Source of the DNA: an uncultured Planctomycetales bacterium
GTDB taxonomy: Bacteria; Omnitrophota; Gorgyraeia; Gygaellales; Profunditerraquicolaceae
Reading direction: 5' to 3'
DNA: 64,000 nt
NCBI GenBank assembly: GCA_964542785.1
Contig: CAZIUK010000003.1
Location: 12,946-76,945, forward strand
The notes under the pieces are model-generated. The model was not told the origin of the DNA and searched no databases. It saw nothing but the letters and a program-made list of their open reading frames with translations. A program made the position numbers and the translations under genes. Positions 32,629 to 59,337 of the stretch are shown here, piece by piece (positions within the stretch are counted from its first letter, which is position 1; every line of letters begins with the position of its first letter).

Positions 32629-32665
32629 GGGGACAGCGACTTTTTTATCAAAAAGTCGCTGTCCC
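32629..32665. repeat. REP-like inverted pair (hairpin) between the two secretin genes
   Basis: GGGGACAGCGACTTTTT-tatc-AAAAAGTCGCTGTCCC forms a perfect 16-bp stem. Confidence 0.95.
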
Positions 32666-32670
32666 TATTT

Positions 32671-34611
32671 ATGAAATGGGGTATCTGCCTATTTTTATTA
32701 TTTTTGCTGATAGCGCCTTTAGGGGCTTTTATTTTTGCGCAAGGCGATATTGATTATGATGAACAGATAGATAAGATTTCTTTAGATTTAAAGAATGTTG
32801 AAATTGTAGAGCTTCTGCGCATACTTTCTCTTAAGACAAAAAAGACAATTGTCCCCAGCAAAGATATCTCAGGGCGCGTTACTATTTACCTTAATAACGT
32901 CTCTTTTAATGACGTTTTAGATATAGTCCTTTTAACTCAAGGCCTGGCTTTAAACAAAAAAGATAATATTTATTATGTTATGAGCGAAGCTGAATTTAAA
33001 AAAATTTTCGGCCGGGATTACATTGACAATAGAAAGGTAGAGACGGTAAAGCTTGCTTATGCTAAGCCCTCGGTAGTTTTTAATGCCTTAGGCCAGTTAA
33101 AATCAGATCTGGGGAAATTAGTCGTAGATGAATCAAGCGGGACGGTTATTCTTATAGATATTCCCGAAAAACTTTCTCTGATGAAAAAGATGATAAATGA
33201 AATGGACCAGCCATTGACAACCAAGGTCTACAACCTTAACTACATTAAAGCTGCTGATGCTAAAACTCAAATAACTGCCGCTATTACGCAAGGCACAGGA
33301 GAGGTTATAGTAGATGAAAGAAGCAGTAAAGCTATTGTTTCAGATTTATCTAAGAAAATGGATAAGATAGGTATGCTTGTACGCGAGATAGACGAAGAAT
33401 CGCGCCAGGTTTATGTGGAGGCTGATATTGTAGAGCTTAGTTTAAGCGATAAGTTTGAGCGCGGCATAGATTGGGAGAAGGTTTATACCTCTGCGGCTAT
33501 GGATGGATTAACCTTTGCCGGTTATTTCCCTGCTACATTAGCGCAGTTTCAAAAAATATCCGTTGGCACTTTAGCCGTGGATCACTACAAGGCCATATTA
33601 AATTTTCTTAACACTTACGGCAAGACGAATATCATCTCTCAGCCTAGGATAGCAGTTGTTAATAATGAAGAGGCAAATATTATGATTGGCGTGCGTGAGG
33701 CTTATATAACACAGACGCAGAGTCAGGCTACTTCCACTACGGTTACTTCGGAAACGGTAGAGTTTATTGATGTTGGCGTTAAGCTTAAAATATCCCCAAG
33801 GATAGGCTCTGATGGTTTTATCACTATGAAACTTAAACCTGAGGTAAGCTCTGTAAAGGAGACAGTAGAGACTTCTTTAGGCAGCCGTATTCCGATAGTC
33901 CAGACTTCTGAGTCAGAGACGACGGTAAAGGTTAAGGATGGGACGATGATTATGATTGCCGGGATGACTAAGATTGAAAATGTAGATGCGATTAAGGGTT
34001 GGCCAGTGCTTTCTAAAATTCCCTTTCTTGATATATTCTTTGGCAATCGTACCAGCGAGAAAAAGAGAACAGAGGTTATAGTCTTTTTGACTCCGAGAAT
34101 AATGCGCAGTGATGAAGGCTTAAGAGGATTAGAGATTGCTAAGATTCTCCCTAAGGAATATCTGCCTGAGAAGCTGCAGGTTAAGATAGACAGGGACCAG
34201 AAGATAGATGACGCTTTGTTTGAGACTGAGGAGAATCCGCAGGAATTACTTACGGCGCGCGATTATTATTTTAAGGGGTTAGAGTCGCAGGCATCTTTGG
34301 ATAATAAAGAGGCCATACGTTATTTTAAGAAGGCTATAGAGTTAGATAGTAAATATGCCGCGGCTTATAACAATTTAGGAATTGCTTATGAGAAGGAGTT
34401 TATGCCGGAAAAAGCAGAAGAGGCGTATCTTCAGGTTATATCTATGGACCCTTCTTTTGTCTCTGCTTATTCTAATTTAGCCTTACTTAATGAAGACCGG
34501 CTTGATTATGCCCGGGCGCTTATTTATTGGAGAAAACGAGTCCTTTACGGAGACCCTAATGATGAGTGGACTAAACAGGCTGTTCAAAGGGTTAAGGAGC
34601 TTAGCCGTTAA
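32671..34611 (+). CDS. Secretin paralog 2 with a C-terminal TPR extension
   Basis: Domain order matches paralog 1, with roughly 45-50% identity by eye. It adds a TPR-like tail (AIRYFKKAIELDSKYAAAYNNLGIAYEK...). ATG 32671 directly precedes the signal peptide MKWGICLFLLFLLIAPLGAFIFAQG. The upstream in-frame ATGs at 32572 and 32596 read through the REP hairpin. Confidence 0.8.
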   Translation: MKWGICLFLLFLLIAPLGAFIFAQGDIDYDEQIDKISLDLKNVEIVELLRILSLKTKKTIVPSKDISGRVTIYLNNVSFNDVLDIVLLTQGLALNKKDNIYYVMSEAEFKKIFGRDYIDNRKVETVKLAYAKPSVVFNALGQLKSDLGKLVVDESSGTVILIDIPEKLSLMKKMINEMDQPLTTKVYNLNYIKAADAKTQITAAITQGTGEVIVDERSSKAIVSDLSKKMDKIGMLVREIDEESRQVYVEADIVELSLSDKFERGIDWEKVYTSAAMDGLTFAGYFPATLAQFQKISVGTLAVDHYKAILNFLNTYGKTNIISQPRIAVVNNEEANIMIGVREAYITQTQSQATSTTVTSETVEFIDVGVKLKISPRIGSDGFITMKLKPEVSSVKETVETSLGSRIPIVQTSESETTVKVKDGTMIMIAGMTKIENVDAIKGWPVLSKIPFLDIFFGNRTSEKKRTEVIVFLTPRIMRSDEGLRGLEIAKILPKEYLPEKLQVKIDRDQKIDDALFETEENPQELLTARDYYFKGLESQASLDNKEAIRYFKKAIELDSKYAAAYNNLGIAYEKEFMPEKAEEAYLQVISMDPSFVSAYSNLALLNEDRLDYARALIYWRKRVLYGDPNDEWTKQAVQRVKELSR

Positions 34612-35965
34612 CTTAAAACCAAAGAAGAGCTTTTTTCAGGAGAAACTCCTCCTCTTTTCTTTTTTCATCCTTATTTTTAGCACCTTTCTTATAGGATCTG
34701 TTGGTATATCCAAAATATATTGGTTTAATGCTAAAGTTAAAGATTTAGCCCAACATAACCTTAAATTAGAGTCCGCAGTTCTTGAGATGAGGATAAGGAA
34801 TGCTAATTTTGCGATGGGGGTGCGTAACTATGTTTTTTGGCGCGCTTCACGCTACTTGCAGTCTGTATCCATTGCCGGAGACTTAGATAAGATTTTTATT
34901 TCGGTAGAAGATTTTGAAGAGCATCTTAAAGCGTATCGCCAGAGTTCTTATCTAAAGGAGCAGAGGGATTGGGCAGATGAAGTAGCTTTAGCTTTTGATG
35001 GGGTTGTCCAGCAAGGCAAGAGGCTTGTTGAGCTGCTTGGAAAAGAAGAACCGGGAAAGATAAGCGAGCTTATAAACAGCCAGTTGATGAGCTTTGAGAA
35101 TAATGTTTACCGAATTGATGAATTTTTAGATAAGGCGATGGGCAAGTCTAATCTTGCTGAGGTAGAGCGCCAGATGCTTATTACAGCTCAGGATAAGGAG
35201 CAGGCTATTAGTTTTTTGAAGGTAAGCCTTATTGTATCTATTCTTATGGGGTTAGTTATTGCGTCTGTGGTATATCGCAGGATAGTCCGGGAAAAAGCTT
35301 ACCGCCAGAAACTCTTTGACCGGATTGTAAATCTTGAGGAGGACGAGCGTAAGAAGCTCTCTACCGCGGTTCATGATGAGATGGGCCAAGACTTAAGCGC
35401 CCTTAAGATTTATTTAGGGTTAATTTCTCAAGAGCTGCCGGATATAGCTGAAGATACTAAGAAAAAGCTTGATGAGTGCAAAAAGATCGCTTCCGGGCTT
35501 ATCGAGAAGAGCCATAATATTTCTTTTCTTCTCAGGCCCCCGGAGTTAGACGAGGTAGGGCTTTTAGAGAGCATAGAATCGCTTCTTCTTGAGGCTAAAC
35601 ATTTAACGGGGATAGAGTATTCATTTCAGAAGCCTAAGCTTTTGCTGGATTGTTCGGCAGAGAGGAGTCTTTTGCTTTACCGCGCCTCTCAGGAACTTTT
35701 AACCAATATGATAAAATATGCAAAGGCAAAAAATGTGGTTTTACGTTTAAATAGGATCGGTGATTCCGCTCAGCTTTTTTATTATGATGATGGTTGCGGG
35801 TTTGATCTTGCAAAGTTAAAGTATAAATTATTGCGCCGCAGAGAGGATAAGTTTGGCTTGGGGTTATTGGGCCTGAAAGAAAGGGTGGAGCTTTTAGGCG
35901 GGGATATAAAGATAAATTCGTCTTTGGGGGGAGGCACGACTATTATAGTCAATTTGCCGCTTTAA
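34559..35965 (+). CDS. Sensor histidine kinase (HisKA_3/NarX-DegS type)
   Basis: It has two TM segments flanking a sensor domain of about 190 aa. The H-box is AVHDEMGQDLSAL and an HATPase_c domain follows (ELLTNMIKYA, DDGCGF, GLGLLGLKERVELLGG). ATG 34559 has GGAG 6 nt upstream and overlaps the 3' end of the secretin gene. Confidence 0.8.
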   Translation: MMSGLNRLFKGLRSLAVNLKPKKSFFQEKLLLFSFFILIFSTFLIGSVGISKIYWFNAKVKDLAQHNLKLESAVLEMRIRNANFAMGVRNYVFWRASRYLQSVSIAGDLDKIFISVEDFEEHLKAYRQSSYLKEQRDWADEVALAFDGVVQQGKRLVELLGKEEPGKISELINSQLMSFENNVYRIDEFLDKAMGKSNLAEVERQMLITAQDKEQAISFLKVSLIVSILMGLVIASVVYRRIVREKAYRQKLFDRIVNLEEDERKKLSTAVHDEMGQDLSALKIYLGLISQELPDIAEDTKKKLDECKKIASGLIEKSHNISFLLRPPELDEVGLLESIESLLLEAKHLTGIEYSFQKPKLLLDCSAERSLLLYRASQELLTNMIKYAKAKNVVLRLNRIGDSAQLFYYDDGCGFDLAKLKYKLLRRREDKFGLGLLGLKERVELLGGDIKINSSLGGGTTIIVNLPL

Positions 35966-35967
35966 TC

Positions 35968-36609: not shown

Positions 36610-36616
36610 TCTTATA

Positions 36617-36644
36617 AATGTCCAATCTAAAATGTCCATTCTAA
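36617..36644 (+). repeat. Tandem 14-mer direct repeat
   Basis: AATGTCCAATCTAA is followed directly by AATGTCCATTCTAA, with one mismatch. The first copy starts 8 nt after the response regulator stop. Confidence 0.9.
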
Positions 36645-36656
36645 GGAGAAGGGAAA

Positions 36657-36670
36657 GGGGGACAGCGACT
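36657..36670 (+). repeat. Solo REP-like half-site
   Basis: GGGGACAGCGACT. Confidence 0.85.
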
Positions 36671-36791
36671 ATTTATAAGAGTAATATTTATAATAAAATA
36701 GAGTAGTTTTACGATTGTTATTTTAGGATAAATATAATATACTTAAGGTACAGGTTAAAAATAAAAAATGGCAGGTATAATGAAAATAATA

Positions 36792-36815: not shown

Positions 36816-36818
36816 AAA

Positions 36819-36872
36819 GGGGACAGCGACTATTACTATTTTTGCGCTATGATAAAAAAAGTCGCTGTCCCC
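36819..36872. repeat. REP-like inverted pair with a 30-nt spacer, overlapping the start codon of the next gene
   Basis: GGGGACAGCGAC (36819-36830) pairs with GTCGCTGTCCCC (36861-36872). The ATG at 36849 lies inside the spacer. Confidence 0.9.
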
Positions 36873-39338
36873 ATTTTGGTTGCGTGTTTTTTTGTTGTCG
36901 CAGCGCAGGCAGAGGTCTTGGTAATTAAAGCTCCCTTAACTTGGGGGCTTGATAAATCCGCAGAATACCCTTTGCCAAAAGTATTAAACGGTATTTATAC
37001 AACTGACCAGTTTGTAGCTACTGAAGGACAAGTTAGCGCTATTACGATGAATTGGGAATCAAGGGGCGCTATATCAATGGAGGTAAGCGCTGATAATGGG
37101 CTGCATTATACTCCGGTAATAAATGGCGTTCCTTTAGAGAGCGGTTTTGTAAGTGGAGATAGGATTCGCTGGCGGGCACAAGCGCTAAATGAGGATGCGC
37201 AGTTAACAGCGGTGAATCTTTCTTATTCTGATACATCCGGAGTAATAGGGGATTTTGGCCAGCCACTTTTAAGCGGATTTATGTACCGTAAAGAATTTAT
37301 AGTGCGCAATGATTCTAGAGAAGATTTATACAATTATCAGATGAAGCTAAGAATAGGGGAAAGTGAATTAGCCAAGGATGCTGATATCTGCCTTTCTAAA
37401 AAAGCAAAAGAGGATTTTAGCGATATAAGAATTAGCGCATCTGATGGTAAGCGTATTTTATCCTATTATCTTGAAAGCATAGAAGGCGAGCTTCCAGGAA
37501 AGCGCAGTGCTGTAATTTGGGTTAATATTCCTCAACTGCCAAAAGAAAAAGATTTAAAGCTTTACCTATATTATGGGAATCCGCAGGCTTTAAGTTTATC
37601 AAGCGGCGAGCAGACGTTTGATTTTTTTGATGATTTTAAAGACCCTGCCAAGAGCAATGAGAAATGGATAACCTATACAGAAAAAAACGGTACCTTGCAA
37701 TTAAAAAATGGGGAAATTAAGCTTGATGCAGCCGAAGCCATTACAAAAGATTTTCTTTTTAAAGAAGGAATTGTTGAGTATCCCGTAGAGATTGAGAGCG
37801 GTTTTGAAAACAGTTTAAACTTGCGTGTCCAGAATGGTAACTCTTATGATATTCCGCTTTGGTCGGGTTATTCTTCTTTATACAAAGGTGCAGAGCATTG
37901 CATTGCTGTAGAGGGGACAGTAAGAAATAATGACACAACTGCTCTACCTTCTTTTGCCGGAAATAGGTATTACTACCGTTTTGAATATTTTAATGGTAAT
38001 ATAGTCTTTAGCCGTTTTGATGCTTTGACTAAAGAAAAGCAGGCAGAGGCAGTCTTTAAGTCTGATTCTTTGCAAAAAATAGGCTATCTGTCTTTGCGTT
38101 CCGGAGGTGACGGGAATGGCAAGAATGTTATTCGTTTTGGCGCTATACTTGTGCGTAAAGCTGCTTTAATCAAACCGTATTTTGTTTCAGCAGGAAAAGA
38201 AGAGCAACTCTCTTTGCCTATTTTTTCCGGTACAACTCTTTCTTCTTTTGGGAGCCTTACTTTGGCCAAAGGGGCAATGAGCGGGCATTATATTTCAAGT
38301 AATATCCGAAGCGAAGACCAGATAAGGATCATGATCCCTGACTGGGATATTGATTCTCTTGGAGGAGAGTTTATCTTACATCTTTCTGCTGATGCCGGCG
38401 GGTCATATAAGAAAGGCTGCGAAAAGGGGAAGTATTATTATGCTTCAAAAAAGGATTTTGTCCCCGGGAAAAACTTAAAGATACGCATTGACCTTTTAAA
38501 AGGGGCAGGCTCCGAAGTCGAAAAAGTCGCTGTCCCCTTTGTGAAGGTGGAGCATAGGGCAGGAAAGGTAAATATTATTTCACCTAATGGCAGAGAGGTC
38601 TGGGAGGTAGGAAGCAGTAAGAAGATTAGCTGGAGTGCCTTGGATTACGATGAAACTTATCTTTTTGATTTAGCTTACTCTGTCAATGGAGGAAAGGATT
38701 ATATTGAGATTATAGCCAATAAAGATAATGATGGAGTTTATACTTGGGTTGTCCCGGATAAAATTACTAAAATCGCAAAGATAAAGATATCTGATTCTTT
38801 GGATAAAGGTATTTATGATCTTTCCGATGCTTATTTTTCTATTGTAGCTAGAGAAGATTTAAGCATTCAGGAAGAGAAAAAAGAAGAAGCAGGGGTAGTA
38901 GTGCAGGCAGCGCTAAAAGATAAAGCCAGTAAAGAGAGCAAAGATAAGAAAGATAAAGTTACTAAAGAAAGCAAAAAGAAGAAAGATAAAGTTAGCAAAG
39001 AGAACAAAAAGTTGCCGGGGAAAAATCTTTATGATCTTTTAATTAAGATAGGCGATAGCAGGTCTTCCTACAGCGAGGGGGATATTGTTATCTTAAGGCC
39101 TTCAGGTTATATTTGGAGCGTTGAAGAGAGGGAGAAGTTTTTGATTGCGCAGGTATACCTAACTGAAAAGCAGGCTGAGGAATTAACCTCTCCTTTAAAA
39201 ACAAAGGATGGAGAGATATTAAGCCGCAGGAAATATAGGATTAACTTGCTTAAGCAGGGGCTTAAAGGTTTGACAGGGTCAATTAAAAGGCCAAAGGGCT
39301 CTTTTGAGGCAGGGGTTATTGAGGATAAGGCAAATTAG
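36849..39338 (+). CDS. Large secreted protein with a DUF2341-like domain, beta-sandwich modules and a Lys-rich segment
   Basis: The start is set at MIKKVAVPILVACFFVVAAQAEV (signal peptide). The DUF2341-like pattern is YRKEFIVRN...DFSDIRISASDGKRILSYYLES...AVIWVNIPQLP...LYLYYGNPQA. An IISPNGREVWEVGSSKKISW module is present. The K-rich repeat is KDKVTKESKKKKDKVSKENKK. Confidence 0.6.
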   Translation: MIKKVAVPILVACFFVVAAQAEVLVIKAPLTWGLDKSAEYPLPKVLNGIYTTDQFVATEGQVSAITMNWESRGAISMEVSADNGLHYTPVINGVPLESGFVSGDRIRWRAQALNEDAQLTAVNLSYSDTSGVIGDFGQPLLSGFMYRKEFIVRNDSREDLYNYQMKLRIGESELAKDADICLSKKAKEDFSDIRISASDGKRILSYYLESIEGELPGKRSAVIWVNIPQLPKEKDLKLYLYYGNPQALSLSSGEQTFDFFDDFKDPAKSNEKWITYTEKNGTLQLKNGEIKLDAAEAITKDFLFKEGIVEYPVEIESGFENSLNLRVQNGNSYDIPLWSGYSSLYKGAEHCIAVEGTVRNNDTTALPSFAGNRYYYRFEYFNGNIVFSRFDALTKEKQAEAVFKSDSLQKIGYLSLRSGGDGNGKNVIRFGAILVRKAALIKPYFVSAGKEEQLSLPIFSGTTLSSFGSLTLAKGAMSGHYISSNIRSEDQIRIMIPDWDIDSLGGEFILHLSADAGGSYKKGCEKGKYYYASKKDFVPGKNLKIRIDLLKGAGSEVEKVAVPFVKVEHRAGKVNIISPNGREVWEVGSSKKISWSALDYDETYLFDLAYSVNGGKDYIEIIANKDNDGVYTWVVPDKITKIAKIKISDSLDKGIYDLSDAYFSIVAREDLSIQEEKKEEAGVVVQAALKDKASKESKDKKDKVTKESKKKKDKVSKENKKLPGKNLYDLLIKIGDSRSSYSEGDIVILRPSGYIWSVEEREKFLIAQVYLTEKQAEELTSPLKTKDGEILSRRKYRINLLKQGLKGLTGSIKRPKGSFEAGVIEDKAN
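38521..38537 (-). repeat. REP-like half-site inside the coding sequence
   Basis: AAAAAGTCGCTGTCCCC is translated in frame as EKVAVPF. Confidence 0.85.
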
Positions 39339-50000: not shown

Positions 50001-53000
50001 GCTGCAAGCGGTTGACCTTTATGATAATATCTGCAACGGCCTTAATGGTTCTTCCGGATTCTCTGGTTCAAAGAAGGTTACCTGGAGTTTAAGCGGAGCT
50101 TCTGATGGACCTGAGGGGAATGTTATTGATGAGTTTGTCAGTCCTGTAGAGTTTAGCTTAGGGGTATCCACTACTACTTTAAGCGCAAAGCTCTACCGTG
50201 CACAGGATACCACCATTACCGCTGCTATTTCTGCTTTAATAGGGGTAAATGTTGCTTCGAATACAATTACAGTTGAGCCTGGGGCAGTAGCAAAGCTAAG
50301 GTTCTCTCAGGAGCCTGCGGCTTCTTCCATTACCAGTCAGGCTTTAGAGGTACAGCCTAAGGTTGCGGTAAGTGATCAGTATGGTAACCCTGTTTCTACT
50401 ACCTCGGCTAACGTAAGCATTGCTGCTTCAACTAGCAATGATTCATTTGTACCTGTGGTTAATGGAGTATTAAGCGCTATTGGAGGACTTACAGCATCTA
50501 CAGTTAACGGAGTAGCTTCTTTTAGCGGAGTAACCTATAATTATCCTGAGACTATTTACCTTCGCGCCACAGTCGCAGGGGTAAGCCTGGTGCCGGTATT
50601 CTCTTCAGGTATAACATTTAGTACCGCTCAGGAAACAGCTCTCTCTGTTACTACACCAGGGCCTACTGCTATTTCTTCTCTTGCCTATACTACTGCAGAC
50701 AGAGTTGGGGTGCTTAATTTTAGGGTTGTTGATGGGGGGACTGATGGTTTCTCCAGTAAGATACGCCAGGTGATTGTAAAGCGCAACACCTCTGATACTA
50801 CCGGCGGGTGGACAAATTACCTGCAGGGAGTCTATATTACCGATGGAGCAACGCAGGTGGTTGGGAGGATAGAGGATGATCAGATTATTTTTGGCTTGGG
50901 GGGAAATGATATTTATGATGTTACTAACGGCACGACTAAGAATTTTACTGTGAGCGTATTTTTGAAGAATCCGCTCCCCTTAGATTCAGATAATAAGGTT
51001 TTGGGTTTCAAGCTTGATCCGGCTACAGATATAGTATTTGGTTCACCTAGCTCTAGGCTTGTCTCTTCTTCTGTGATGAGTTCAACTCCAAAGATCTCGG
51101 TTGTGGCTACTGATTTTGCTATTTTTGGCTCTCCTACCATGAATGCCGGAGATACCCAGCCGATTACGCTTAAGGCCGTAGATATACTGGGCAATATTGA
51201 TAAGGATTATGTTGGAGAAAAAACTTTAGTTTTTAGCGGACCAAGTATAACGAGTAAAGGAAATGAGCCCATCGAGACGACCTCAAATATTCCTTTTGGT
51301 ACGGATACCCCGGTTTCTTTTACCAACGGCCAGAGCTCATCTACCGTCGGGATTAAACTCTTTAAAGCCGAAACTGCTTATGTTAAGGCAGCCGATATTT
51401 CTGCGGGGATAACTACTCCTAATCAGAAAGCCTTGATTGTTACGGTTTACGGCGGAGCTGCCACGGGTTTAAGTTGGCTTACCCAGCCGGTGGGCGTAGT
51501 TGTCGAAAATGCCCCGTGGAAAGAGTTTAGTATTTCAGTTACCGATGCTTATGGCAATACCTCATCCAGCAGTACTGAGGTAACCGTAGCTCCTTCTAAC
51601 GGCAGTATCTCTACAGGTTCGCAGGCAACAGTTACCGCTCAATCGGGAATAGCCACATTCTATAATTTTGCGGTAAATGGTCTTAATGATGAAGAGAAGA
51701 TCACTTTAAGCGCATCAGCAAGCGGGGTAGCCGGTACCGGTCCTTCCAATGAAGTGCAGGTATTTAAGGTTTATAAGGTAACGGTCTTTGTAAAAGATTA
51801 TACTAGCGCTAGTAATCTTACTGAATGCGCTTTGGATGCCACATCTAACGGAGTAGTCGTAGATGGTTTTCCAAAGACAGGCAACAGCCCGTTTACTTTT
51901 AACTTGCCCTACGGGACGTATACCTTCCGGGTCTCTAAGGAAAAATATGTTGATGAAAACACCGAAAAGACAGCTGGTGTTGCCGCGGATTACCTGGACG
52001 GAGTATATGATGCAAAGATTACCTGGTCTTTGACTGCTACAAGTTTAGTTGAGGCTACTGCTGATTATAAAGCACAGAGCGCTTTTGTTTATGATGAAAG
52101 TACTGACAAGCTTTCTATCCGCGTCTGGCTGGAGAAGCGCGGGAAGATGGTAGTTAATGATGATGTTAATATTTTAGGTAATGCGGTTGTAGATATCTAT
52201 AATGATTCTACCGGGGGATGGCTTAAGTCAATTACCTTAGAGCCTCCTGCTGCGTCTAATACTGTAAATGGAGTTTATTTTAAGGAGATACCTAATGTAG
52301 TTTCTGTTGACGATGATTTTAACCTTGTTGCAGGCAAGACCTATTTTGCCCGTGTTGTCATTAATTATGGTGGGCTTACTGGTACAGGCAGAAGTTATGA
52401 AGGAGGAGCGACCTTTAGTGTTACTATAAACGAGAATCTGCGCGCAGTTACTAATTCTATTCAGACGGTTGCTACTAATATCGCCGGGCAGACTGCGGCA
52501 ATTCAAAAGACGATAAAGGATGAGATAGAAGGCCAGATTACTAGTGTTGTTGTGCCTAAGATTACTGATGTAAAGACTGAGACATCTAAGATTCTTTCTG
52601 CCACAGGCACAGAGTCTTTGCAGGATAAGATTGCCGAGGTAAAAACACAGGTAGTCCAGGAGGTTCAGCCGCATATTAAATCCGGTATATTAAATGGAGA
52701 GACTGCGGTAAGAACTGGCTCTAAACTAGCTGTTCGTTATCGAACTGATTCTGGACTTTCTCCAACGATATCCGTATATAGCCCCAAGAACAATCTTCTT
52801 ATCTCCGACAGGGCTATGGCAGAGATAGGGATAACGGGAATCTATGAGTATAATGTAACATTTTTACCGGCTTGGGGGAGGGGATCCTTTACTATTGTTT
52901 GTTCAGAGCCGGTAAAAGGAACAGCTGATGCCTTTGTGCTTAAGGTAAGTGATTCGGATATAGAGGATATATCAAGTAGTGTCTCTGCTGTTTTAGGTAG

Positions 53001-53370
53001 CACCTCTGGCATTACCAACCTTAAGAAAGTAACCGAAACCTTAAACGCGCAGTTTAGTGATATGGATAAGGCTATTGCCCAAATCAGCAAGAATATTACT
53101 GGAAAGGTTGAAGAGGTAAAAGGGGCTGCCGTTGAACTTGCCGGCGTATTTAAGCAGCTTGAGGATATGAGTAATACCATTAAGAGCTTAGGAGGGACAG
53201 CCGGTATAAATATTGATAAGATTTACGAGGTATCTAAAGATAAGCAGGAGGATATTAGTTATATTAAGAATAAGAGCGAAGAGCTTAAGGCGGCGATGGA
53301 GCTTAACCAAAAGATGATAGAGAATGTTGCTAAGAAGCCAGTAGTTCAAACCTGGTTTGAATTCAAGTAA
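44023..53370 (+). CDS. Giant (3115 aa) secreted surface protein with Big/Ig-like repeats and a coiled-coil-like C-terminus
   Basis: It has a signal peptide. Invasin/intimin-type Big-like units are visible (LLSGNNQSGKIAAPLLQAFVVAVTDVYGNG...DYQVTASSAGLSGSPVTF). A 643-aa module occurs twice almost identically, and a diverged third copy lies at about 49.5-51.5 kb. A carboxypeptidase-regulatory-like segment is also present (YKVTVFVKD...GTYTFRVSKEKY). Confidence 0.75.
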   Translation: MKKILKVLLIGGLALWGYFESASLALGANLSISSASDQTFISEEAPKDAQAITITDVSGSGIIVSSGLRILIPDSFGMQWHGAMLRDDSVTDTSNADFSVIAAQIISAGVTLESSDAGATGSVEVNFTSINSIPADAKIVITFPDNFVFNSKSPTLASSATMSGDFSVSITGQVITVTRNSTSASSAGSHLITLTNIKNPIRPGTTGAYSLKIQTLAGFDIDVNNDLAASTIVPAATSRITLNSPDDMTAGAARAAYTLTRYDEYGNLSTQEEEVFDISTTSTGDNAVFYNDATASEAGNIITSITIPQGSSSVNFWYDDTKMGAYTIAAIKSDQPEITVSDGINVKHAEPDHLRFVSDIPTADAKQVSVQFNLPQLAAVDRYDNILTNDYGAAAYSGNKAITYSLSGQRDAPDGNGTDLFYSDNVASAKVNFTNGLSTNALSAKLYRAQNTVISPADSNLPSESLPSNEIIVNPATATKLVFKQQPSGSAIVNSAFLQQPVVAIQDHYGNQTLDIFPIKLYDSIRSEFPYADAPGILTSDHEDNTLNAVAGEASFSGVEYNASGVIYLYAQGLGAGSNVNPVFSNEITLATSVTTMVKAADTPVADFNLTPTNDTLEKKFKVLKFKVTDAGEDKTPTLIDQIKIAVSGTGGHASTDIAWAGLYVGEEKVADAASITDDFITFGQEPNSDSTAGIYSVPDSSSVEFTVYIHMKPDKLSALDGQSYIFTTDEDRVGVDRGASSQMTASSGSIAAVTGTIKVDMTHLEIVTEEGASTLTVSAGVPVELLVRATDANKNIDSDYNGSHTLVFSGLNSVGTLYPKIESVLFGYNITISFSGGISASQGVTLTPYKSEEGIIVVQESGKSYSQHGLTATIVPAATSRITLNSPDDMTAGAARAAYTLTRYDEYGNLSTQEEEVFDISTTSTGDNAVFYNDATASEAGNIITSITIPQGSSSVNFWYDDTKMGAYTIAAIKSDQPEITVSDGINVKHAEPDHLRFVSDIPTADAKQVSVQFNLPQLAAVDRYDNILTNDYGAAAYSGNKAITYSLSGQRDAPDGNGTDLFYSDNVASAKVNFTNGLSTNALSAKLYRAQNTVISPADSNLPSESLPSNEIIVNPATATKLVFKQQPSGSAIVNSAFLQQPVVAIQDHYGNQTLDIFPIKLYDSIRSEFPYADAPGILTSDHEDNTLNAVAGEASFSGVEYNASGVIYLYAQGLGAGSNVNPVFSNEITLATSVTTMVKAADTPVADFNLTPTNDTLEKKFKVLKFKVTDAGEDKTPTLIDQIKIAVSGTGGHASTDIAWAGLYVGEEKVADAASITDDFITFGQEPNSDSTAGIYSVPDSSSVEFTVYIHMKPDKLSALDGQSYIFTTDEDRVGVDRGASSQMTASSGSIAAVTGTIKVDMTHLEIVTEEGASTLTVSAGVPVELLVRATDANKNIDSDYNGSHTLVFSGLNSVGTLYPKIESVLFGYNITISFSGGISASQGVTLTPYKSEEGIIVVQESGKSYSQHGLTATINAGAASNIALLSGNNQSGKIAAPLLQAFVVAVTDVYGNGIGSGTGVDFAILSQPEGATGALLSTISGVTDANGHAFTTLTVGSLAGDYQVTASSAGLSGSPVTFIATGLLPSAIQLLSGDNQSKQVVSALDDPLVVKIVDSTGIPIPREKVDFTISSYPEGAVGQALLSGSVVTDDNGQAQTSFTLGDKAGVYKVTVNCGSLTAVDFNFNATARAPYQVALRGPVSVKAGEVSTKFTVSIEDEYNNPSNLSQATVFSLTNNPSRPSGIFYSNSDGTLAINSLTVAKGTNSASFYYKDTITGMANITATRTSGQSLIQGISSQEVTVIPSDAYRFTIVGNTDTIETGESKVLTITAYDNLGNVKSDYTGNVNVLFSGASASPAPSSKKATASNHLSQDIEFGKTTSLNFINGVAVSTLKFYKVEDVNIKITSGSIVTAEEDSLSFTVRHGQADHLKFGGNLPALQEAGVEFDFETTLQAVDLYDNICNGLNGSSGFSGSKKVTWSLSGASDGPEGNVIDEFVSPVEFSLGVSTTTLSAKLYRAQDTTITAAISALIGVNVASNTITVEPGAVAKLRFSQEPAASSITSQALEVQPKVAVSDQYGNPVSTTSANVSIAASTSNDSFVPVVNGVLSAIGGLTASTVNGVASFSGVTYNYPETIYLRATVAGVSLVPVFSSGITFSTAQETALSVTTPGPTAISSLAYTTADRVGVLNFRVVDGGTDGFSSKIRQVIVKRNTSDTTGGWTNYLQGVYITDGATQVVGRIEDDQIIFGLGGNDIYDVTNGTTKNFTVSVFLKNPLPLDSDNKVLGFKLDPATDIVFGSPSSRLVSSSVMSSTPKISVVATDFAIFGSPTMNAGDTQPITLKAVDILGNIDKDYVGEKTLVFSGPSITSKGNEPIETTSNIPFGTDTPVSFTNGQSSSTVGIKLFKAETAYVKAADISAGITTPNQKALIVTVYGGAATGLSWLTQPVGVVVENAPWKEFSISVTDAYGNTSSSSTEVTVAPSNGSISTGSQATVTAQSGIATFYNFAVNGLNDEEKITLSASASGVAGTGPSNEVQVFKVYKVTVFVKDYTSASNLTECALDATSNGVVVDGFPKTGNSPFTFNLPYGTYTFRVSKEKYVDENTEKTAGVAADYLDGVYDAKITWSLTATSLVEATADYKAQSAFVYDESTDKLSIRVWLEKRGKMVVNDDVNILGNAVVDIYNDSTGGWLKSITLEPPAASNTVNGVYFKEIPNVVSVDDDFNLVAGKTYFARVVINYGGLTGTGRSYEGGATFSVTINENLRAVTNSIQTVATNIAGQTAAIQKTIKDEIEGQITSVVVPKITDVKTETSKILSATGTESLQDKIAEVKTQVVQEVQPHIKSGILNGETAVRTGSKLAVRYRTDSGLSPTISVYSPKNNLLISDRAMAEIGITGIYEYNVTFLPAWGRGSFTIVCSEPVKGTADAFVLKVSDSDIEDISSSVSAVLGSTSGITNLKKVTETLNAQFSDMDKAIAQISKNITGKVEEVKGAAVELAGVFKQLEDMSNTIKSLGGTAGINIDKIYEVSKDKQEDISYIKNKSEELKAAMELNQKMIENVAKKPVVQTWFEFK
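44711..48576 (+). repeat. Near-perfect in-frame tandem duplication, 2 x 1929 bp
   Basis: Copy 1 spans 44711-46639 and copy 2 spans 46640-48568. The shared 8-mer CCACGATT sits at all three boundaries (44711, 46640, 48569). I found one mismatch (A44730 versus G46659, synonymous). The translated copies are identical. Confidence 0.95.
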
Positions 53371-53390
53371 AAATAATGATAATGGATAAT

Positions 53391-53449
53391 GGGGACAGCG
53401 ACTTTTTTGATAAAAAGTCGCTGTCCCCCTAGAAAAAGTCGCTGTCCCC
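53391..53449. repeat. REP-like cluster (one forward and two reverse copies) after the giant gene
   Basis: GGGGACAGCGACTTTTT-tgat-AAAAAGTCGCTGTCCCC forms a 17-bp stem. A second AAAAAGTCGCTGTCCCC follows at 53433-53449. Confidence 0.95.
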
Positions 53450-55046: not shown

Positions 55047-55075
55047 AATACTGCTATAATAAACAGTGATATAGT

Positions 55076-55711
55076 GGGGACAGCGACTTTTTGACTTTTT
55101 ATTTTTAGCTCTTTGATAATTTTTACTTAAATTTTTAAGTTAGATTTCCTTCCTTGCCGCGTCTATTGATAGTGAAGGTGATAGATGATATAGGGCCTAA
55201 AAGGAAGGGGTGGTATGGGGAGAATAGCCAGAATAGTAGGAGTAGGGTTGCCGCACCATATTACACAGAGAAGGAATTACCAATAATGTTGCTCATATGC
55301 GTTATTCGCAGTATTTTAATAATAAATTAAACCAGCGAGGGCATCTTTGGCAGGGAAGATTTTATTCTTGTATTTTGTCGCAAGCGCACCTTATGCTTGC
55401 TGCTTGCTATATAGAGCGTAATCCTGTACGCGCGGGTTTAGTAGATCAGCCATGGCATTGGCAATGGTCAAGTGCTGCCAGCCATACAAACCGTAAGATT
55501 GATGAGTTGGTTAATTCTGATGAGTTGTTAAAGCTTGTAGGTATGTCAAGCTCTTCTTGGGAGAAATATATAGAAACAAAGGAAGAAGAGAGTTTTTTGC
55601 AGGATATAAGGAAACATACTTTTACCAGTCGTTCTTTTGGCGTGGTTTAGGTTATTTTAAGGAGCAGGTCTAAGAAGGATAGGGTTGGGTTAAAAAAAAG
55701 TCGCTGTCCCC
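55076..55711 (+). mobile_element. Decayed REPtron: RAYT pseudogene bracketed by inverted REP-like half-sites
   Basis: GGGGACAGCGACTTTTT (55076-55092) and its exact reverse complement AAAAAGTCGCTGTCCCC (55695-55711) flank the RAYT remnant. Confidence 0.7.
55215..55650 (+). pseudogene. REP-associated tyrosine transposase (RAYT, IS200/Y1-like) with an internal deletion and frame break
   Basis: The N-terminal fragment MGRIARIVGVGLPHHITQRRNYQ* (55215-55286) resembles the RAYT N-terminus. The C-terminal fragment lies in another frame (55297-55650) and carries GHLWQGRFYS and YIERNPVRAGLV..WQWSS. The central segment of about 70 aa that normally carries the HUH motif (NHxHLL) is missing. Confidence 0.7.
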
Positions 55712-55735
55712 GTTTTAGTATGGAGGTTATTTAAG

Positions 55736-56614
55736 ATGCATAAAGATGTAGATATTTTAGTTATCAAAGGAGAAGAAAAAGCCACAGGGTTGATTGAATC
55801 TACGGTTCGTTCTGCAGGCTACAATGTTTGGTTGGCCAATGATCATAATGAAGGCTTGAAGCTTTTGCGTTCTAATACTTTCCCGATAGTAATTACAGAA
55901 GTACTTTCTGTAAAGATGGATGTTGCTCACTTTTGTAGAGAGGTCAACAAACTAAGCCCGTTGACTAACGTGATTGTTGTTGCCCTCTATTCTTTAATTA
56001 ATAACGCTATTAAGGCTATGGAGGCAGGGGCTTACGGGTATATTACTAAGCCACTAAATGTTTCTGAAATACGTATAGTCGTGGAGAGGGCAGTAGAGAG
56101 GTACTTTCTGTTTTCTGCCAGGGAAGATAAGGATTATTTTGTTGATTTAGCTGTAAGGGATGGGCTTACCGGACTTTTTAATCGGCGCTATTTTAATGAA
56201 TTAATAAAAATAGAGTTTAGCCGCATTAAGCGGTTACCGTCGTTTCTCTCTCTGCTAATTCTTGACATAGATAATTTTAAAAACTATAATGATACGCAAG
56301 GACATAGCGCAGGCGACATTTTATTAAAGAATGCCGCTAAAATTTTTAAGAGTTCTGTGCGTACCGTAGATATAGTTTTTCGCTATGGGGGAGAGGAGTT
56401 TGCAGTAATACTTCCTAGTACAGATAAAAAAGGGGCTCAGATTATTGCAGAGAGGATACGTATGCAGGTGAGCCTGTATCTACCTACTACTGTAAGTATA
56501 GGCATTTCTACTGCCCCAGAAGATGCCGAGGAGATAAGCCTATTGATAGAGAAGGCGGATAAGGCTTTGTATCAAGCGAAGAACAGTGGTAAAAATAAGT
56601 GGTGTGTTGCATGA
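55736..56614 (+). CDS. Diguanylate cyclase with a degenerate receiver domain (REC-GGDEF)
   Basis: 292 aa. The active site GGEEF has an RxxD I-site (RTVD) 5 residues upstream. In the REC domain the phospho-acceptor position reads IVITEV (Glu instead of Asp), and the acidic pair is replaced (ILVIKGEE). Confidence 0.8.
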   Translation: MHKDVDILVIKGEEKATGLIESTVRSAGYNVWLANDHNEGLKLLRSNTFPIVITEVLSVKMDVAHFCREVNKLSPLTNVIVVALYSLINNAIKAMEAGAYGYITKPLNVSEIRIVVERAVERYFLFSAREDKDYFVDLAVRDGLTGLFNRRYFNELIKIEFSRIKRLPSFLSLLILDIDNFKNYNDTQGHSAGDILLKNAAKIFKSSVRTVDIVFRYGGEEFAVILPSTDKKGAQIIAERIRMQVSLYLPTTVSIGISTAPEDAEEISLLIEKADKALYQAKNSGKNKWCVA

Positions 56615-56835
56615 GGGTTCTTATACTAGAGCCTAAAGGGACTATTTGGGAGGGGATAGCAGAGCAAGTGACCCTTCCGGCTAAAGAAGGTCAAATGTGT
56701 GTGCTTGATTTTCATCAGCCTTTTGCAGTTAGGTTGATAAATGGCAGCATTGTTTTTAGCAATAAAAGAATAAAAATAAAAGACGGGGTTGCTTATATGC
56801 GGTCTAACAATTTGACGGCCTTTGTGCAAACTTAA
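56611..56835 (+). CDS. atpC: F-type ATPase epsilon subunit, beta-sandwich domain only
   Basis: 74 aa from MRVLILEPKGTIWEGIAEQVTLPAKEGQMCVLDFHQPF.... This fits the pattern of the epsilon N-terminal domain, and no C-terminal helical hairpin is present. An ATGA overlap links it to the GGDEF gene stop. Confidence 0.6.
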   Translation: MRVLILEPKGTIWEGIAEQVTLPAKEGQMCVLDFHQPFAVRLINGSIVFSNKRIKIKDGVAYMRSNNLTAFVQT

Positions 56836-56840
56836 AAAAT

Positions 56841-57053
56841 ATGAGTAGTATAGGATTAATTATCGTTATGTTTTTAAGCACTGCCGGCCCGGCTGCAGTT
56901 ATAGCTTTTGTAGGATATGCTGCGGTTAAGGCGGTCGCGCGTAATCCTTCCGCGAGCCCAAAGATATTTACTGTTATGATTCTATCATTTATATTCGCAG
57001 AGGCGATAGCGATTTTAGCCCTTCTGATTATATATAATTTGTTTACCAAATAA
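56841..57053 (+). CDS. atpE: F-type ATPase subunit c
   Basis: 70 aa forming a two-helix hairpin. The loop is ARNP and the helix-2 carboxylate is in IFAEAIAILAL. Confidence 0.8.
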   Translation: MSSIGLIIVMFLSTAGPAAVIAFVGYAAVKAVARNPSASPKIFTVMILSFIFAEAIAILALLIIYNLFTK

Positions 57054-57060
57054 GATAAAT

Positions 57061-57774
57061 ATGTTGATTAACCTTTTGATTTTGCAAATTATTACCTTTA
57101 TAGGGGTTGTCTTACTTTTACGTTTTATATTTACCCGCCACTTAAAATCCGCGTTATCCAGGCTTAATGCCTTGCATGGGGAAAATTTATCTAAAGAAGA
57201 AGAGCTTAAGGAGGAGATCAGGCGTGTTAAGGAGCAAAGCGAAGCCTTTATTAAACAAAGCAGGGAAGAAGCAGAATTAATCATTGCTGAGGCTAATAAG
57301 AATGCTCAGAGAATTAGGATGAATATTGAGGAGCAGGCTAGAAATCAGGCAGAGAAGATCATCAGTGATTCTCGCATAGATAGCGAGAAAATTCAAAAGG
57401 AAGCACTTAAGAATATACAGGGACAGAGTATAGAGTTAGCCTTAAGGATGATTTCAGAATTGCTTACTGAAACAGATAAGGTAGCTTTGCAGTATGAGTT
57501 AGCCAACGGTATTATTGAAGAGATCTCCCGATTGCCTAAAGAACAGTTTAGTGTTCCCGGGGGGGAAGTCAACATTACTTCCAGCTTTCCGCTGTTAGAA
57601 AGGCAATGCAATAAAATAAAGAGTATTCTTACAGATAAATCAGGTTCGCCTGTAAATTTAAATCAAAAGTTAGACCCGGAGATTATCGGCGGGCTTATAG
57701 TTGAAATGGGGGGCATGGTCATCGACGGGACATTAAGAAGCAGGCTACAGAGGGTTGCTGAGGGGTTTAAATAA
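57061..57774 (+). CDS. atpF: F-type ATPase subunit b fused to a delta (OSCP) C-terminal domain
   Basis: 237 aa with an N-terminal TM and a charged helix typical of subunit b. The C-terminus VNITSSFPL...LDPEIIGGLIVEMGGMVIDGTLRSRLQRV matches the delta C-terminal pattern. Confidence 0.65.
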   Translation: MLINLLILQIITFIGVVLLLRFIFTRHLKSALSRLNALHGENLSKEEELKEEIRRVKEQSEAFIKQSREEAELIIAEANKNAQRIRMNIEEQARNQAEKIISDSRIDSEKIQKEALKNIQGQSIELALRMISELLTETDKVALQYELANGIIEEISRLPKEQFSVPGGEVNITSSFPLLERQCNKIKSILTDKSGSPVNLNQKLDPEIIGGLIVEMGGMVIDGTLRSRLQRVAEGFK

Positions 57775-57778
57775 GCTT

Positions 57779-59251
57779 ATGGCTGTTGAGGCGTTAGATA
57801 TTAAAGAAGTAGGCAAGGTTGAGGAGCTTAAGCAGGGGATCGTTAAAATTAGTGGTTTGCCTAATTGCGCCTTTGGGGATGTTATAACTTTTGATAATTC
57901 ATCTTTTAGCATTGATAGTATGCTTAAGGGGATGATTATTGAGTTTGATTCTAAATACGCCTTTGGCATTGTTTTTGGGGATGAGCATAGCATAAAAGTA
58001 GGGGATATTGTTTCTAGCCGTAAACATTTATTAAGCGTACCGGTTGGAGATAGTTTTATAGGTAGGGTGGTAGATGCCTTAGGTAATCCTTTGGATGGTA
58101 AAGGTAAGATAGAGAAGGATGAAGATTATCCGGTTTTTCGGCAAGCTGCCGGGATAATGGAACGCGAACCCATTTCTCAGACTTTGCATACGGGTATTAA
58201 AATTATAGATATGTTGATTCCTTTAGGCAAGGGGCAACGTGAGCTTGTTGTTGGGGATAGGCAAATAGGCAAAACTTCTATTGCCTTGGATATGATAATA
58301 AATCAAAAAGGCAGAGATGTTATATGTATATATTGCTGGATTGGAGGCAGTATATCTGCCTTTAATAAGGTTATTCAGACTATAAAAGAGCACGGGTGCA
58401 TGGATTTTACTTTAGCTGTTTGTGCTTCTGCCGGGTCATCGGTTAGCGAACAGTATATTGCTCCTTATACTGCCGCGGCTTTAGGCGAGTATTTTATGTA
58501 TAAAGGCAAGGATGTGTTAGTAGTTTTTGATGATTTGACTAAGCATAGCTGGGTTTATAGGCAGATGTCTTTGTTACTGGAGCGTGCCCCTGGGAGAGAA
58601 GCTTACCCCGGAGATATATTCTTTCTTCACTCTCAATTAATGGAACGTGCTGGGAGGCTTAAAAAAGAATTTGGCGGAGGAACTATGACTTTTTTACCTT
58701 TGGCTGAAACACTGCAAGGAGATATTACAGGCTATATCTGTTCTAATATCGTTTCAATGACTGACGGGCAAATCTATTTAAATACTGGGTTATTCCAAGA
58801 AGGTTTTAAGCCAGCAATTGATTTAGAGTTATCTGTATCTCGTATTGGCAGTAAGGTACAGTCTCCGGCCATTAAGAAGTTAAGCGAAGGATTGCGTTAT
58901 GAATATGTACATTACCGTTCTTTGTTGAGATTGACGCGCCTGCGGACAAAATTAAGCCCCGAGGCTACGCAACAGATTCAGCGCGGTAGGGCGCTCTATG
59001 AATTGCTTATACAAGAAAATTTTTCTCCTGTTTCTCAAGCAGAAGAGATTGTTTCTTTTTACGCTTTTCAACAAAAAATCCTCGAGTCGATAAATTTGGA
59101 CGAGGTAAAATTGTTTAAGAAAAACTTTTTCCCTTATTTAAGTAAAAATAATCAAGATTTGGTGGATATTTTGAATGATAAAGGTGAACTTACAGAAGAA
59201 GTCAAGCAGCTTTTAGACAAGGCGATAAAAGGTTTTTTTGCGCTTTCATAA
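57779..59251 (+). CDS. atpA: F-type ATPase alpha subunit (divergent)
   Basis: Walker A is GDRQIGKTS. Also present are DDLTKHSWVYRQMSLLLERAPGREAYPGDIFFLHSQLMERA. The start is set at ATG 57779, just after the b-delta stop, whereas the ORF track starts at 57755. Confidence 0.85.
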   Translation: MAVEALDIKEVGKVEELKQGIVKISGLPNCAFGDVITFDNSSFSIDSMLKGMIIEFDSKYAFGIVFGDEHSIKVGDIVSSRKHLLSVPVGDSFIGRVVDALGNPLDGKGKIEKDEDYPVFRQAAGIMEREPISQTLHTGIKIIDMLIPLGKGQRELVVGDRQIGKTSIALDMIINQKGRDVICIYCWIGGSISAFNKVIQTIKEHGCMDFTLAVCASAGSSVSEQYIAPYTAAALGEYFMYKGKDVLVVFDDLTKHSWVYRQMSLLLERAPGREAYPGDIFFLHSQLMERAGRLKKEFGGGTMTFLPLAETLQGDITGYICSNIVSMTDGQIYLNTGLFQEGFKPAIDLELSVSRIGSKVQSPAIKKLSEGLRYEYVHYRSLLRLTRLRTKLSPEATQQIQRGRALYELLIQENFSPVSQAEEIVSFYAFQQKILESINLDEVKLFKKNFFPYLSKNNQDLVDILNDKGELTEEVKQLLDKAIKGFFALS

Positions 59252-59264
59252 ATGGGATAAATGA

Positions 59265-59337
59265 AATGGGGGACGAAATGGGGGACAGCGACTTTTTTCT
59301 AAAAAAAGTCGCTGTCCTCCCATAAAGTCGCTGTCCC
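59265..59337. repeat. REP-like cluster between atpA and atpG
   Basis: A partial head AATGGGGGAC is followed by GGGGACAGCGACTTTTTT (59281-59298). Reverse copies are AAAAAAAGTCGCTGTCC (59301-59317) and AAAGTCGCTGTCCC (59324-59337). Confidence 0.9.

Follow-up and report, generated by a model that had tools for sequence, protein, structure and literature searches.

We analysed a window of 64,000 nt from a Candidatus Omnitrophota genome (contig CAZIUK010000003.1, positions 12,946–76,945, assembly GCA_964542785.1; ~40% GC), in which a 17-nt sequence, GGGGACAGCGACTTTTT, recurs 14 times. Judged from sequence comparisons, this 17-mer is very probably the terminal inverted repeat (TIR) of a TIRtron, together with a dispersed TIR family, both of the type described by Di Nocera et al. 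in 2013. Those authors recognised RAYT-like (repetitive extragenic palindrome (REP)-associated tyrosine transposase-like) genes that are flanked by long terminal inverted repeats and not by GTAG REPs, which they called TIRYTs and TIRtrons (PMC3733652). TIRYT stands for TIR-associated tyrosine transposase, and a TIRtron consists of one such gene, in single copy, between two inverted TIRs. The system in the window is related to RAYTs but is not a canonical REP or bacterial interspersed mosaic element (BIME) family. Elements of this kind have already been described, and the host phylum, Candidatus Omnitrophota, lies outside the 2013 survey. A finding of this sort is no surprise, and it is chiefly useful as a comparative system for TIRYTs.

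Results

A repeat family in non-coding DNA

With up to two mismatches allowed, a search of the window with GGGGACAGCGACTTTTT recovered 14 copies, nine of them perfect, against a mean of 0.01 in 100 dinucleotide shuffles, none of which reached 14. The plus-strand copies start at 32629, 36658, 36819, 53391, 55076 and 59281, and the minus-strand copies at 32650, 36856, 38521, 53412, 53433, 55695, 59303 and 59322. A first-pass annotation of the same DNA had arrived at the same number, with every strand right and ten positions right; the other four were displaced by 1–5 nt (36657 for 36658, 36861 for 36856, 59301 for 59303 and 59324 for 59322). It had also described an AAT extension as frequent. 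An A-rich 5′ flank is indeed general and agrees with the wider repeat consensus AATA, but AAT itself precedes only 3 of the 14 copies (AAA precedes 4 of the 14).

Non-coding DNA makes up 6.4% of the window and contains twelve of the copies (P ~4e-13). The two in coding sequence are those at 36856, which occupies codons 3–8 of a DUF2341 gene, and at 38521. All are confined to 32.6–59.3 kb: the first 32 kb hold no copy of the 17-mer, as the first-pass annotation had remarked, and matches there to its 11-mer core at up to two mismatches do not rise above chance level. We nevertheless dropped this confinement to the second half as a meaningful pattern, given that non-coding DNA is divided between the halves as 1429 versus 2694 bp and that all six intergenic sites would fall in the second half with P ~0.08. 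A CRISPR array was ruled out because the copies have no regular spacing, and Rfam at its gathering thresholds gave no match anywhere in the window.

A transposase pseudogene between inverted copies

Two copies in opposite orientation, at 55076–55092 (plus strand) and 55695–55711 (minus strand), enclose the remains of a Y1/HUH transposase gene of TIRYT type (55215–55650, plus strand) and are the left and right TIRs of the presumptive TIRtron. The other 12 copies are dispersed over six further sites, as single units, head-to-head dimers and small clusters. A promoter-like TTGACT-18-GATAAT (55091–55120) begins at the inner edge of the left TIR, and the right TIR lies 24 nt ahead of a GGDEF response regulator gene. 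The open reading frame (ORF) at 55297–55650 matches the C-terminal third of NCBIfam REP_Tyr_transpos (NF047646; E 1e-8; 35.2 bits, under the cut-off) and retains WQGRF and the tyrosine motif YIERNP. A different frame, 55215–55286, encodes MGRIARIVGVGLPHHITQRRNYQ*, an N-terminus typical of this type of transposase. What separates the two frames was seen by comparison with JBASUY01, a metagenome-assembled genome (MAG) from a sister species of Candidatus Omnitrophota that is syntenic with the window over 25.9–63.5 kb at 82–90% DNA identity: relative to it, a 161-bp frameshifting deletion at 55283/55284 has taken out the HUH motif NHVH. Independent assemblies of other samples yielded four contigs (99.98–100% identical to the window) with exactly this truncated ORF, and the deletion is therefore real. 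Because the HUH motif is deleted, the transposase gene of the window is dead, and ORF 55297–55650 should be annotated as a transposase pseudogene.

At the same locus and between the same two TIRs, of which the left is identical to that of the window, JBASUY01 carries an intact gene of 225 amino acids (aa) with NHVH, WQGRF and YIERNP. Its ORF runs through the right TIR and ends …KKVAVPILGA*. A second intact gene was found in JAUYEC01, a more distant Omnitrophota MAG of 49% GC (versus 40% in the window), which encodes a 213-aa homologue (60% identity) with a complete hairpin element on each flank. The intact proteins score 51–59 bits against Pfam Y1_Tnp (cut-off 23 bits; the JBASUY01 protein scores 51 bits) and match REP_Tyr_transpos from end to end at 66.8 and 71.2 bits, under the 80-bit equivalog cut-off of that profile. 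A Pfam search detected no helix-turn-helix or DnaA_C-like domain in their C-terminal tails, and no sequence in the PDB matches the transposase at E ≤0.1.

Homologous loci in metagenomes

Scanning metagenomes with these two proteins gave 80 loci, 64 of which had enough DNA on either side of the gene for the flanks to be analysed. In 58 of the 64, inverted repeats that share the core of the 17-mer or have a related one stand on both sides of the gene, and the stacked TIRs give the consensus AATA-GGGACAGCGAC-CATTTTT. The left TIR of these TIRtrons adjoins a promoter, as it does in the window, here of TTGACA type, and the ORF extends at its 3′ end into the right TIR. The core GGGACAGCGAC is retained in the closer relatives and is still present at 52% protein identity (locus L154); variants GGGACAGCGCC or GGGGACAGACACC appear at ~52–63% identity, GTGACAGGCTAC at 44% and GGGACGGACGAG at 41%. 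Many of the relatives carry A/T-GGGACAG, with three G and not four. Some of the longer loci (L122, L151, L135 and L145) contain extra dimers away from the gene. The bracketing of 58 loci, together with the shift of the core as the proteins diverge, argues that repeat and transposase form a specific, co-varying pair.

Assignment of the protein and of the repeat

The JBASUY01 protein was compared with TIRYT reference sequences from Additional file 5 of Di Nocera et al. (PMC3733652). Along its full length it shows 47% identity with Geobacter GSU2396 (197 bits); the values are 43% for Pca_3049 (164 bits) and 41% for Aba_2776 (156 bits), as against 23% identity and 28.5 bits with E. coli RayT and 45.8 bits with a P. 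fluorescens RAYT. Many TIRYT repeats have the sequence GGGGWSAS, and some form moderately abundant families that occur as singles, dimers and clusters (PMC3733652); the start of the 17-mer, GGGGACAG, fits GGGGWSAS position by position. Of 26 TIRYTs, 20 fall in TnpA-Y1 subclass 2.1, which is group 1 of Bertels and has the motifs NHVH, W[EQ] and YIELNP/Y[IV]HLNP, a median length of 238 aa and the repeat consensus GGGG[AT][CG]A[CG] (PMC6006769). The proteins studied here have NHVH, WQ and YIERNP or YVERNP (one position off YIELNP) and measure 213–225 aa. Their assignment to subclass 2.1 is a provisional one, drawn from motif signatures and pairwise identity and not from a phylogeny, and subclass 2.7 also has NHVH and WQ, with a poorer fit of the Y motif.

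The first-pass annotation had read the family as REP/BIME elements mobilised by RAYTs, which in its canonical form would imply a classical RAYT of Bertels groups 2/3 (subclasses 2.2/2.5). Much of what suggested this is sound: a dispersed and mostly extragenic family with inverted pairs is tied to a RAYT-like Y1 remnant, the remnant is itself flanked by inverted copies, and the best NCBIfam match of the protein is REP_Tyr_transpos. The canonical label is another matter. A canonical REP unit is in itself an imperfect palindrome of 20–40 nt, whereas the 17-mer is not palindromic and lacks internal complementarity. Folding of the solo copies at 55076 and 55695 does not exceed that of shuffled sequence (z 0.19 and 0.75), and the feet of the hairpins read AAT/AAA-GGGG and CCCC-ATT/TTT, with no GT[AG]G or CGTC tetranucleotide. 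The repeat instead fits the TIRYT consensus; the proteins, at 67–71 bits, stay below the 80-bit equivalog cut-off and are far nearer to TIRYTs (197 bits) than to the RAYTs of E. coli and Pseudomonas (28–46 bits). We therefore consider a canonical REP family with a classical RAYT to be distinctly unlikely, and treat the 17-mer as the TIR of a TIRYT in what follows.

Insertion sequences of the IS200 type encode a TnpA with a Y-x-x-x-Q motif, occur in multiple near-identical copies, have subterminal hairpins and often carry tnpB. An IS200/IS605 element was rejected on scores of 18.5–24.5 bits against transpos_IS200 (cut-off 55 bits), on a Y motif that ends in NP and not in Q, and on the lack of tnpB; that there is one gene per locus and that synteny is conserved between species also speaks against it.

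Hairpins and the question of terminators

Eight of the 14 copies in the window are paired. Three of the pairs form tight hairpins (32629–32666, 53391–53428 and 59281–59319) with stems of 16–17 bp or more, and loops of 3–5 nt, which fold at −31.7 to −43.3 kcal/mol (z −7 to −8). The copies of the fourth pair, 36819/36856, stand 20 nt apart and form a stem of 13 bp. An earlier description of most copies as perfect 16–17-bp hairpins with 4-nt loops and T-rich tails thus captures the stems of the three tight hairpins, but not the range of their loops, the fourth pair or the number of copies left unpaired. The T-rich tails are weak. A terminator scan of the window did not flag the 53.4- and 59.3-kb hairpins and flagged the 32.6-kb hairpin on the minus (antisense) strand only, so that the suggested terminator role is unsupported on the transcribed strand within the window. 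The window hairpins are not canonical intrinsic terminators. In JAUYEC01 the elements are flanked by A5/T5–8, and there they look like bidirectional terminators.

Related genomes found through the motif

We scanned one genome per species (596 Gb in total) for exact matches to the 17-mer and found strong enrichment in Candidatus Omnitrophota MAGs. Most single matches in unrelated phyla occur in about the number expected by chance for 596 Gb and were ignored; above this background stand the Omnitrophota MAGs, a UBP3 genome (locus L021), Firestonebacteria and a three-copy repeat in Desulfatirhabdium. Carriage of the 17-mer by phages was dismissed, since 2.9 million viral contigs gave a single exact match, which is the chance level.

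JAUYEC01 has at least 75 copies of the 17-mer in 121 kb of fetched loci, the part of the genome to which its copy counts refer. Seventy-three copies are perfect (97%), and there are 35 dimers, most with loops of 24–26 nt that belong to two sequence families, each present in both orientations (at least 30 dimers). In a pseudopilin operon on one contig, four genes in a row are each followed by an element in the intergenic gap, and the ORF that comes next is overlapped at its predicted 5′ end by a fifth, variant cluster. The repeat also has sequence dialects, GGGGACAGCCATTTTTT and GGGGACAGGCATTTTTTT, and at locus L035 a variant dimer of GGGGACAGGCATTTTTTT is nested within the loop of another dimer. 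The conserved loop families, the 97% of perfect copies and the nested insertion point to the dimers of JAUYEC01 having been copied as units. Its fetched loci match the window genes at paralogue level only (33–42% aa identity). Elsewhere in related genomes the family stands in quite different gene contexts, and the term lineage-specific used in the first-pass annotation has to be given up: the identical 17-mer is abundant in a genome of 49% GC, and its 11-nt core flanks homologues in dozens of metagenome contigs. One of the two JAUYEC01 loop families (TTCACGCTTGCTAACAGCGACGGGGA; 59–60-nt elements, for example L046 2388–2447 and L113 125–184) holds a permuted piece of the repeat, ACAGCGAC followed by GGGGA.

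The dimers could also be independent TIRtron insertions that later lost their interior, in which case only the full TIRtron would ever have moved. TIRtrons do shrink: that of the window has lost 161 bp internally, and one in UBP3 bacterium UBA6266 (L021, DJVC01000051) is down to ~270 bp with the N-terminal codons alone remaining. The dimer loops of the window and JBASUY01 are, moreover, short and heterogeneous, as such losses might leave them. In JAUYEC01, however, at least 30 dimers share two families of 24–26-nt loops in both orientations, which indicates copying of whole dimers, and one dimer sits in the loop of another. Each locus also has a single TIRYT gene, and group 1 RAYTs number fewer than two per replicon on average (PMC5581495). 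We consider an origin of the dimers solely by decay of TIRtrons to be unlikely.

A further alternative is that the repeats are miniature inverted-repeat transposable elements (MITEs) of a DDE-type insertion sequence with 17–22-bp TIRs, whose architecture of terminal inverted repeats around a short non-coding interior they share. Against it, no direct target-site duplication is visible around the dimers and their flanks are complementary (A-rich 5′, T-rich 3′), such repeats enclose no gene other than that of a Y1 transposase in dozens of loci, and no DDE transposase was seen in the window. A DDE-type origin is extremely improbable.

In L021, positions 3830–4370 contain two transposase N-terminal remnants in tandem, one of them inside the ~270-bp element between TTGGACAGCGACTTTTT and AAAAAGTCGCTGTCCCC, and a variant-repeat hairpin, AGGGACAGACACC, adjoins the remnants; the region looks like a decay series of a TIRtron. 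Two Firestonebacteria MAGs (L038 4878–4983 and L050 152–220) have the exact 17-mer inside a 52-nt unit near contig ends, and these 52-nt direct repeats are plain two-copy tandem repeats and not CRISPR. In Desulfatirhabdium CAZJXF01 (L047, L063 and L087), the 17-mer stands at the end of a longer repeat that is present at least three times. Its presence in Firestonebacteria and Desulfatirhabdium may reflect related elements or horizontal spread. In Sporomusa acidovorans DSM 3132 (L051 716–1450), the inverted repeats GGGGACGTTCCTTTT and GGAAAAGGAACGTCCC enclose a TIRYT-like gene that is frameshifted and codes for a helix-turn-helix tail at the C-terminus; the 17-mer match of this locus lies in coding sequence (EGDSDFL) and looks like chance.

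Differences between the window and its sister species

All the intergenic sites of the window recur at orthologous positions in JBASUY01, and the clusters differ only in how many units they contain: two in the window versus three in JBASUY01 at 32.6 kb, one versus two at 36.86 kb, and three versus two at 59.3 kb. At 36.86 kb, JBASUY01 has an in-frame 24-nt duplication, by which KKVAVPFL occurs twice in a signal peptide. Because orthologous sites are shared and the transposase is dead, the family in the window genome looks like an old and currently static population, with changes limited to gain or loss of 21–24-nt units. There is no sign of recent transposition in the window lineage, which fits both the dead transposase and the slow, vertical inheritance reported for systems in which RAYTs accompany REP doublets forming hairpins (REPINs) (PMC5581495).

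The intergenic DNA around the repeats is itself ~90–95% identical in the window and JBASUY01. That the 17-mer is conserved in both is therefore not exceptional, and purifying selection on it was dropped as an explanation. This also matters for the idea that the 17-mer is a host protein-binding site or DNA-uptake signal held in place by selection, with the transposase associated incidentally. Uptake sequences, as in Neisseria and Haemophilus, likewise form inverted-pair hairpins, and they are spread densely and fairly evenly and are common inside genes. The orthologous positions in window and sister, a locus with many genes for secretins and type II/IV secretion, and an identical 17-mer at 40% and 49% GC with its dialects GGGGACAGCCATTTTTT and GGGGACAGGCATTTTTTT would all suit such a signal. 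Yet a signal unrelated to the transposase would not predict that the motif or a co-varying relative brackets 58 of 64 homologous transposase genes, and the distribution within the window, where non-coding DNA takes 12 of the 14 copies and the first 32 kb take none, is also against it. With the unexceptional conservation added, we judge a selected host signal to be very improbable.

Individual sites in the window

All large ORFs of the window are on the plus strand. The gene contexts named in the first-pass annotation (after the giant gene, between the secretins, between atpA and atpG, and around the transposase remnant) were all recovered. The first site is a head-to-head TIR dimer at 32629–32666, with a perfect plus copy at 32629 and a minus copy with one mismatch at 32650, which folds into a hairpin with a 4-nt loop (−31.7 kcal/mol, z −8.0). 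It begins 19 nt past the stop codon of one secretin gene (31074–32609) and ends 4 nt ahead of the ATG, at 32671, of a second (32671–34611). The second secretin, which has tetratricopeptide repeats at its C-terminus, is separated from the first by this 38-nt hairpin alone, and no obvious ribosome-binding site precedes its ATG.

A histidine kinase is paired with a LuxR-type response regulator, and a solo plus-strand TIR with one mismatch (36658–36674) lies 48 nt past the stop of the regulator gene and is kept at the orthologous site of JBASUY01. It is followed by the loosely spaced pair at 36819–36872, made up of a plus copy with two mismatches (36819) and a perfect minus copy (36856). The latter supplies signal-peptide codons 3–8 (KKVAVP) of the DUF2341 gene that starts at ATG 36849. 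A solo perfect minus copy at 38521–38537 lies within DUF2341 coding sequence in the same frame as at 36856 and reads EKVAVPF. The KKVAVP frame is thus used at three places: the DUF2341 signal peptide (MIKKVAVPILV…), the internal EKVAVPF and the C-terminus of the JBASUY01 transposase.

Three perfect copies (plus, minus, minus) make up the cluster at 53391–53449, in which the tight hairpin 53391–53428 (−41.1 kcal/mol) is followed by an extra minus copy. The cluster lies 20 nt past the stop of a gene for a protein of 3115 aa and 46 nt ahead of ORF 53496, and JBASUY01 has an orthologous cluster. Pfam finds no domain in the 3115-aa protein. Its ORF, 44023–53370, has apparent internal repeats with a period of ~1.93 kb, to judge from near-matches at 45448/47377 and from duplicated antisense ORFs at 46107–46412 and 48036–48341.

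The last cluster, 59281–59338, lies between atpA and atpG and has three copies (plus, minus, minus) with 0, 1 and 2 mismatches, of which the hairpin 59281–59319 reaches −43.3 kcal/mol. It starts 29 nt past atpA, and its last copy ends 11 nt ahead of the atpG ATG. Immediately upstream the repeat is found in stuttered, incomplete form, GGGGGACGAAAT. Similar stutters, made of the outer 8–12 nt, occur just outside many TIRs, for example GGGATAAATGAAATGGGGGACGAAATG ahead of GGGGACAGCGAC; they were seen at 59243–59280 of the window and at the unrelated loci L129, L141, L144, L126, L157 and L101. Such stutters at TIR edges could have been left by cleavage and rejoining, or could be binding sites in iterated form.

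Pfam assigns the other neighbours to a GGDEF response regulator, to the b/delta, alpha, gamma and beta subunits of ATP synthase and to a T2SSE ATPase. Within 55736–63227, the ATP synthase genes lie between the GGDEF response regulator and the T2SSE secretion ATPase. Subunits b and delta are fused in one ORF (57061–57774), and an epsilon-like gene lies upstream according to the gene calls of contig L198.

Discussion

We put forward, tentatively, the possibility that a Y1 transposase of group 1/subclass 2.1 drives a genuine REPIN-like population in Candidatus Omnitrophota, with paired TIR arms as its substrate, an 11-nt core constant to ~52% identity and hairpins co-opted at gene boundaries, as in those 4–11 nt ahead of start codons, in the signal-peptide frame and between atpA and atpG. 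On the reading favoured here, of a TIR family with its TIRYT, the HUH/Tyr protein would use single-stranded DNA as its substrate, as IS200/IS608 TnpA and E. coli TnpA-REP (PMC3479197) suggest by analogy. Single TIRs do not fold, and the likely substrate would therefore be the stem that a plus-strand TIR forms with a minus-strand TIR. In a TIRtron this stem would be a long panhandle across 0.6–0.8 kb, and in the dimers the same stem would be closed by a loop of 3–26 nt, giving 16–19-bp hairpins that could serve as minimal non-autonomous substrates. Mobilisation of the TIR by its TIRYT is likewise proposed by analogy, and two observations hint at action of the one on the other: the co-variation of the core with protein divergence and the single nested insertion at L035.

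Several points weigh against reading the repeat as a TIR family moved by its TIRYT. No TIRYT is known to us to act biochemically on its TIR. The ~38 kb aligned between the window and JBASUY01 show no newly occupied intergenic site. Six independently assembled contigs of the same population (99.96–100% identical to the window) have no indel relative to it; this within-population identity is uninformative about mobility, but it confirms the 161-bp deletion. The copy at 38521, the one difference in sites between the two genomes, is missing from the JBASUY01 orthologue (59% aa identity), where the protein alignment has a gap of 1 aa only; a simple insertion does not explain this copy. Strong amplification of a TIR is also atypical for the class, given two surveys: Quentin et al. 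in 2018 found no REP-like repeats near subclass 2.1 genes (PMC6006769), and Bertels et al. in 2017 found 16-mers flanking group 1 genes in ~12 copies genome-wide, with the genes themselves below two per replicon on average (PMC5581495).

Whatever moved them, the repeats may now affect their host. The hairpins that begin 19–29 nt past stop codons would be very stable as RNA and could protect the 3′ ends of upstream mRNAs, and the hairpins or clusters that end 4 nt (second secretin) or 11 nt (atpG) before an ATG could damp translation or read-through. In annotation, such hairpins should not be taken for independent regulatory sites or terminators. Contigs of the window population may also tend to break near the 17-mer repeats.

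Few studies have dealt with TIRYT-associated repeats, and in the large surveys of Y1 transposases that came later this class was reported to have no associated repeats. Should the proposal above be right, it would add a third, mechanistically distinct partnership of repeat and transposase to the group 2 and group 3 REPIN–RAYT systems. Omnitrophota offer a clean comparative case, with an invariant 17-mer, a transposase gene that is dead in the window but intact in JBASUY01 and JAUYEC01, and co-varying TIRtrons by the dozen. The system is suited to asking whether and how TIRYTs act on paired TIRs and what becomes of a repeat population after its transposase has died.

Among known systems, the palindromic elements of Rickettsia and intragenic REPs are comparable in that repeat units are tolerated in frame within genes, as with KKVAVP at 36856, EKVAVPF at 38521 and the JBASUY01 duplication, but here only 2 of the 14 copies are intragenic and the unit measures 17–24 nt, not 100–150 nt. 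The REP/REPIN–RAYT systems of Escherichia and Pseudomonas (Nunvar 2010; PMC3116915; PMC3479197) are closer. They, too, have a single-copy, vertically inherited Y1 transposase beside its cognate repeat, and the repeats are mostly extragenic, often form inverted doublets that give long hairpins, and persist at orthologous sites; action on single-stranded DNA is assumed for both. The family described here differs from them in its non-palindromic unit, in the lack of a GTAG guide, in a protein provisionally of subclass 2.1 rather than 2.2/2.5 and in scores under the RAYT equivalog threshold. With TnpA-Y1 subclass 2.1, or group 1, it shares NHVH, WQ and Y-x-x-x-NP, a similar length (213–225 aa versus a median of 238 aa) and a low gene copy number, although here the flanking repeat is clearly amplified.

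The closest counterparts are the TIRtrons of Geobacter sulfurreducens (GSU2396), Koribacter versatilis (Aba_2776) and Stenotrophomonas maltophilia (Smlt1152/4509). These have a Y1/HUH transposase of the same sequence group, encoded between inverted repeats of which the right one lies over the 3′ end of the ORF, and their repeats start with GGGGWSAS and are dispersed as singles, dimers and clusters. The elements of Candidatus Omnitrophota are set apart by their host, by the very short dimer loops of 3–5 nt and the deletion pseudogene of the window, and by the very high density reached in JAUYEC01, where an element occupies most intergenic gaps of an operon.

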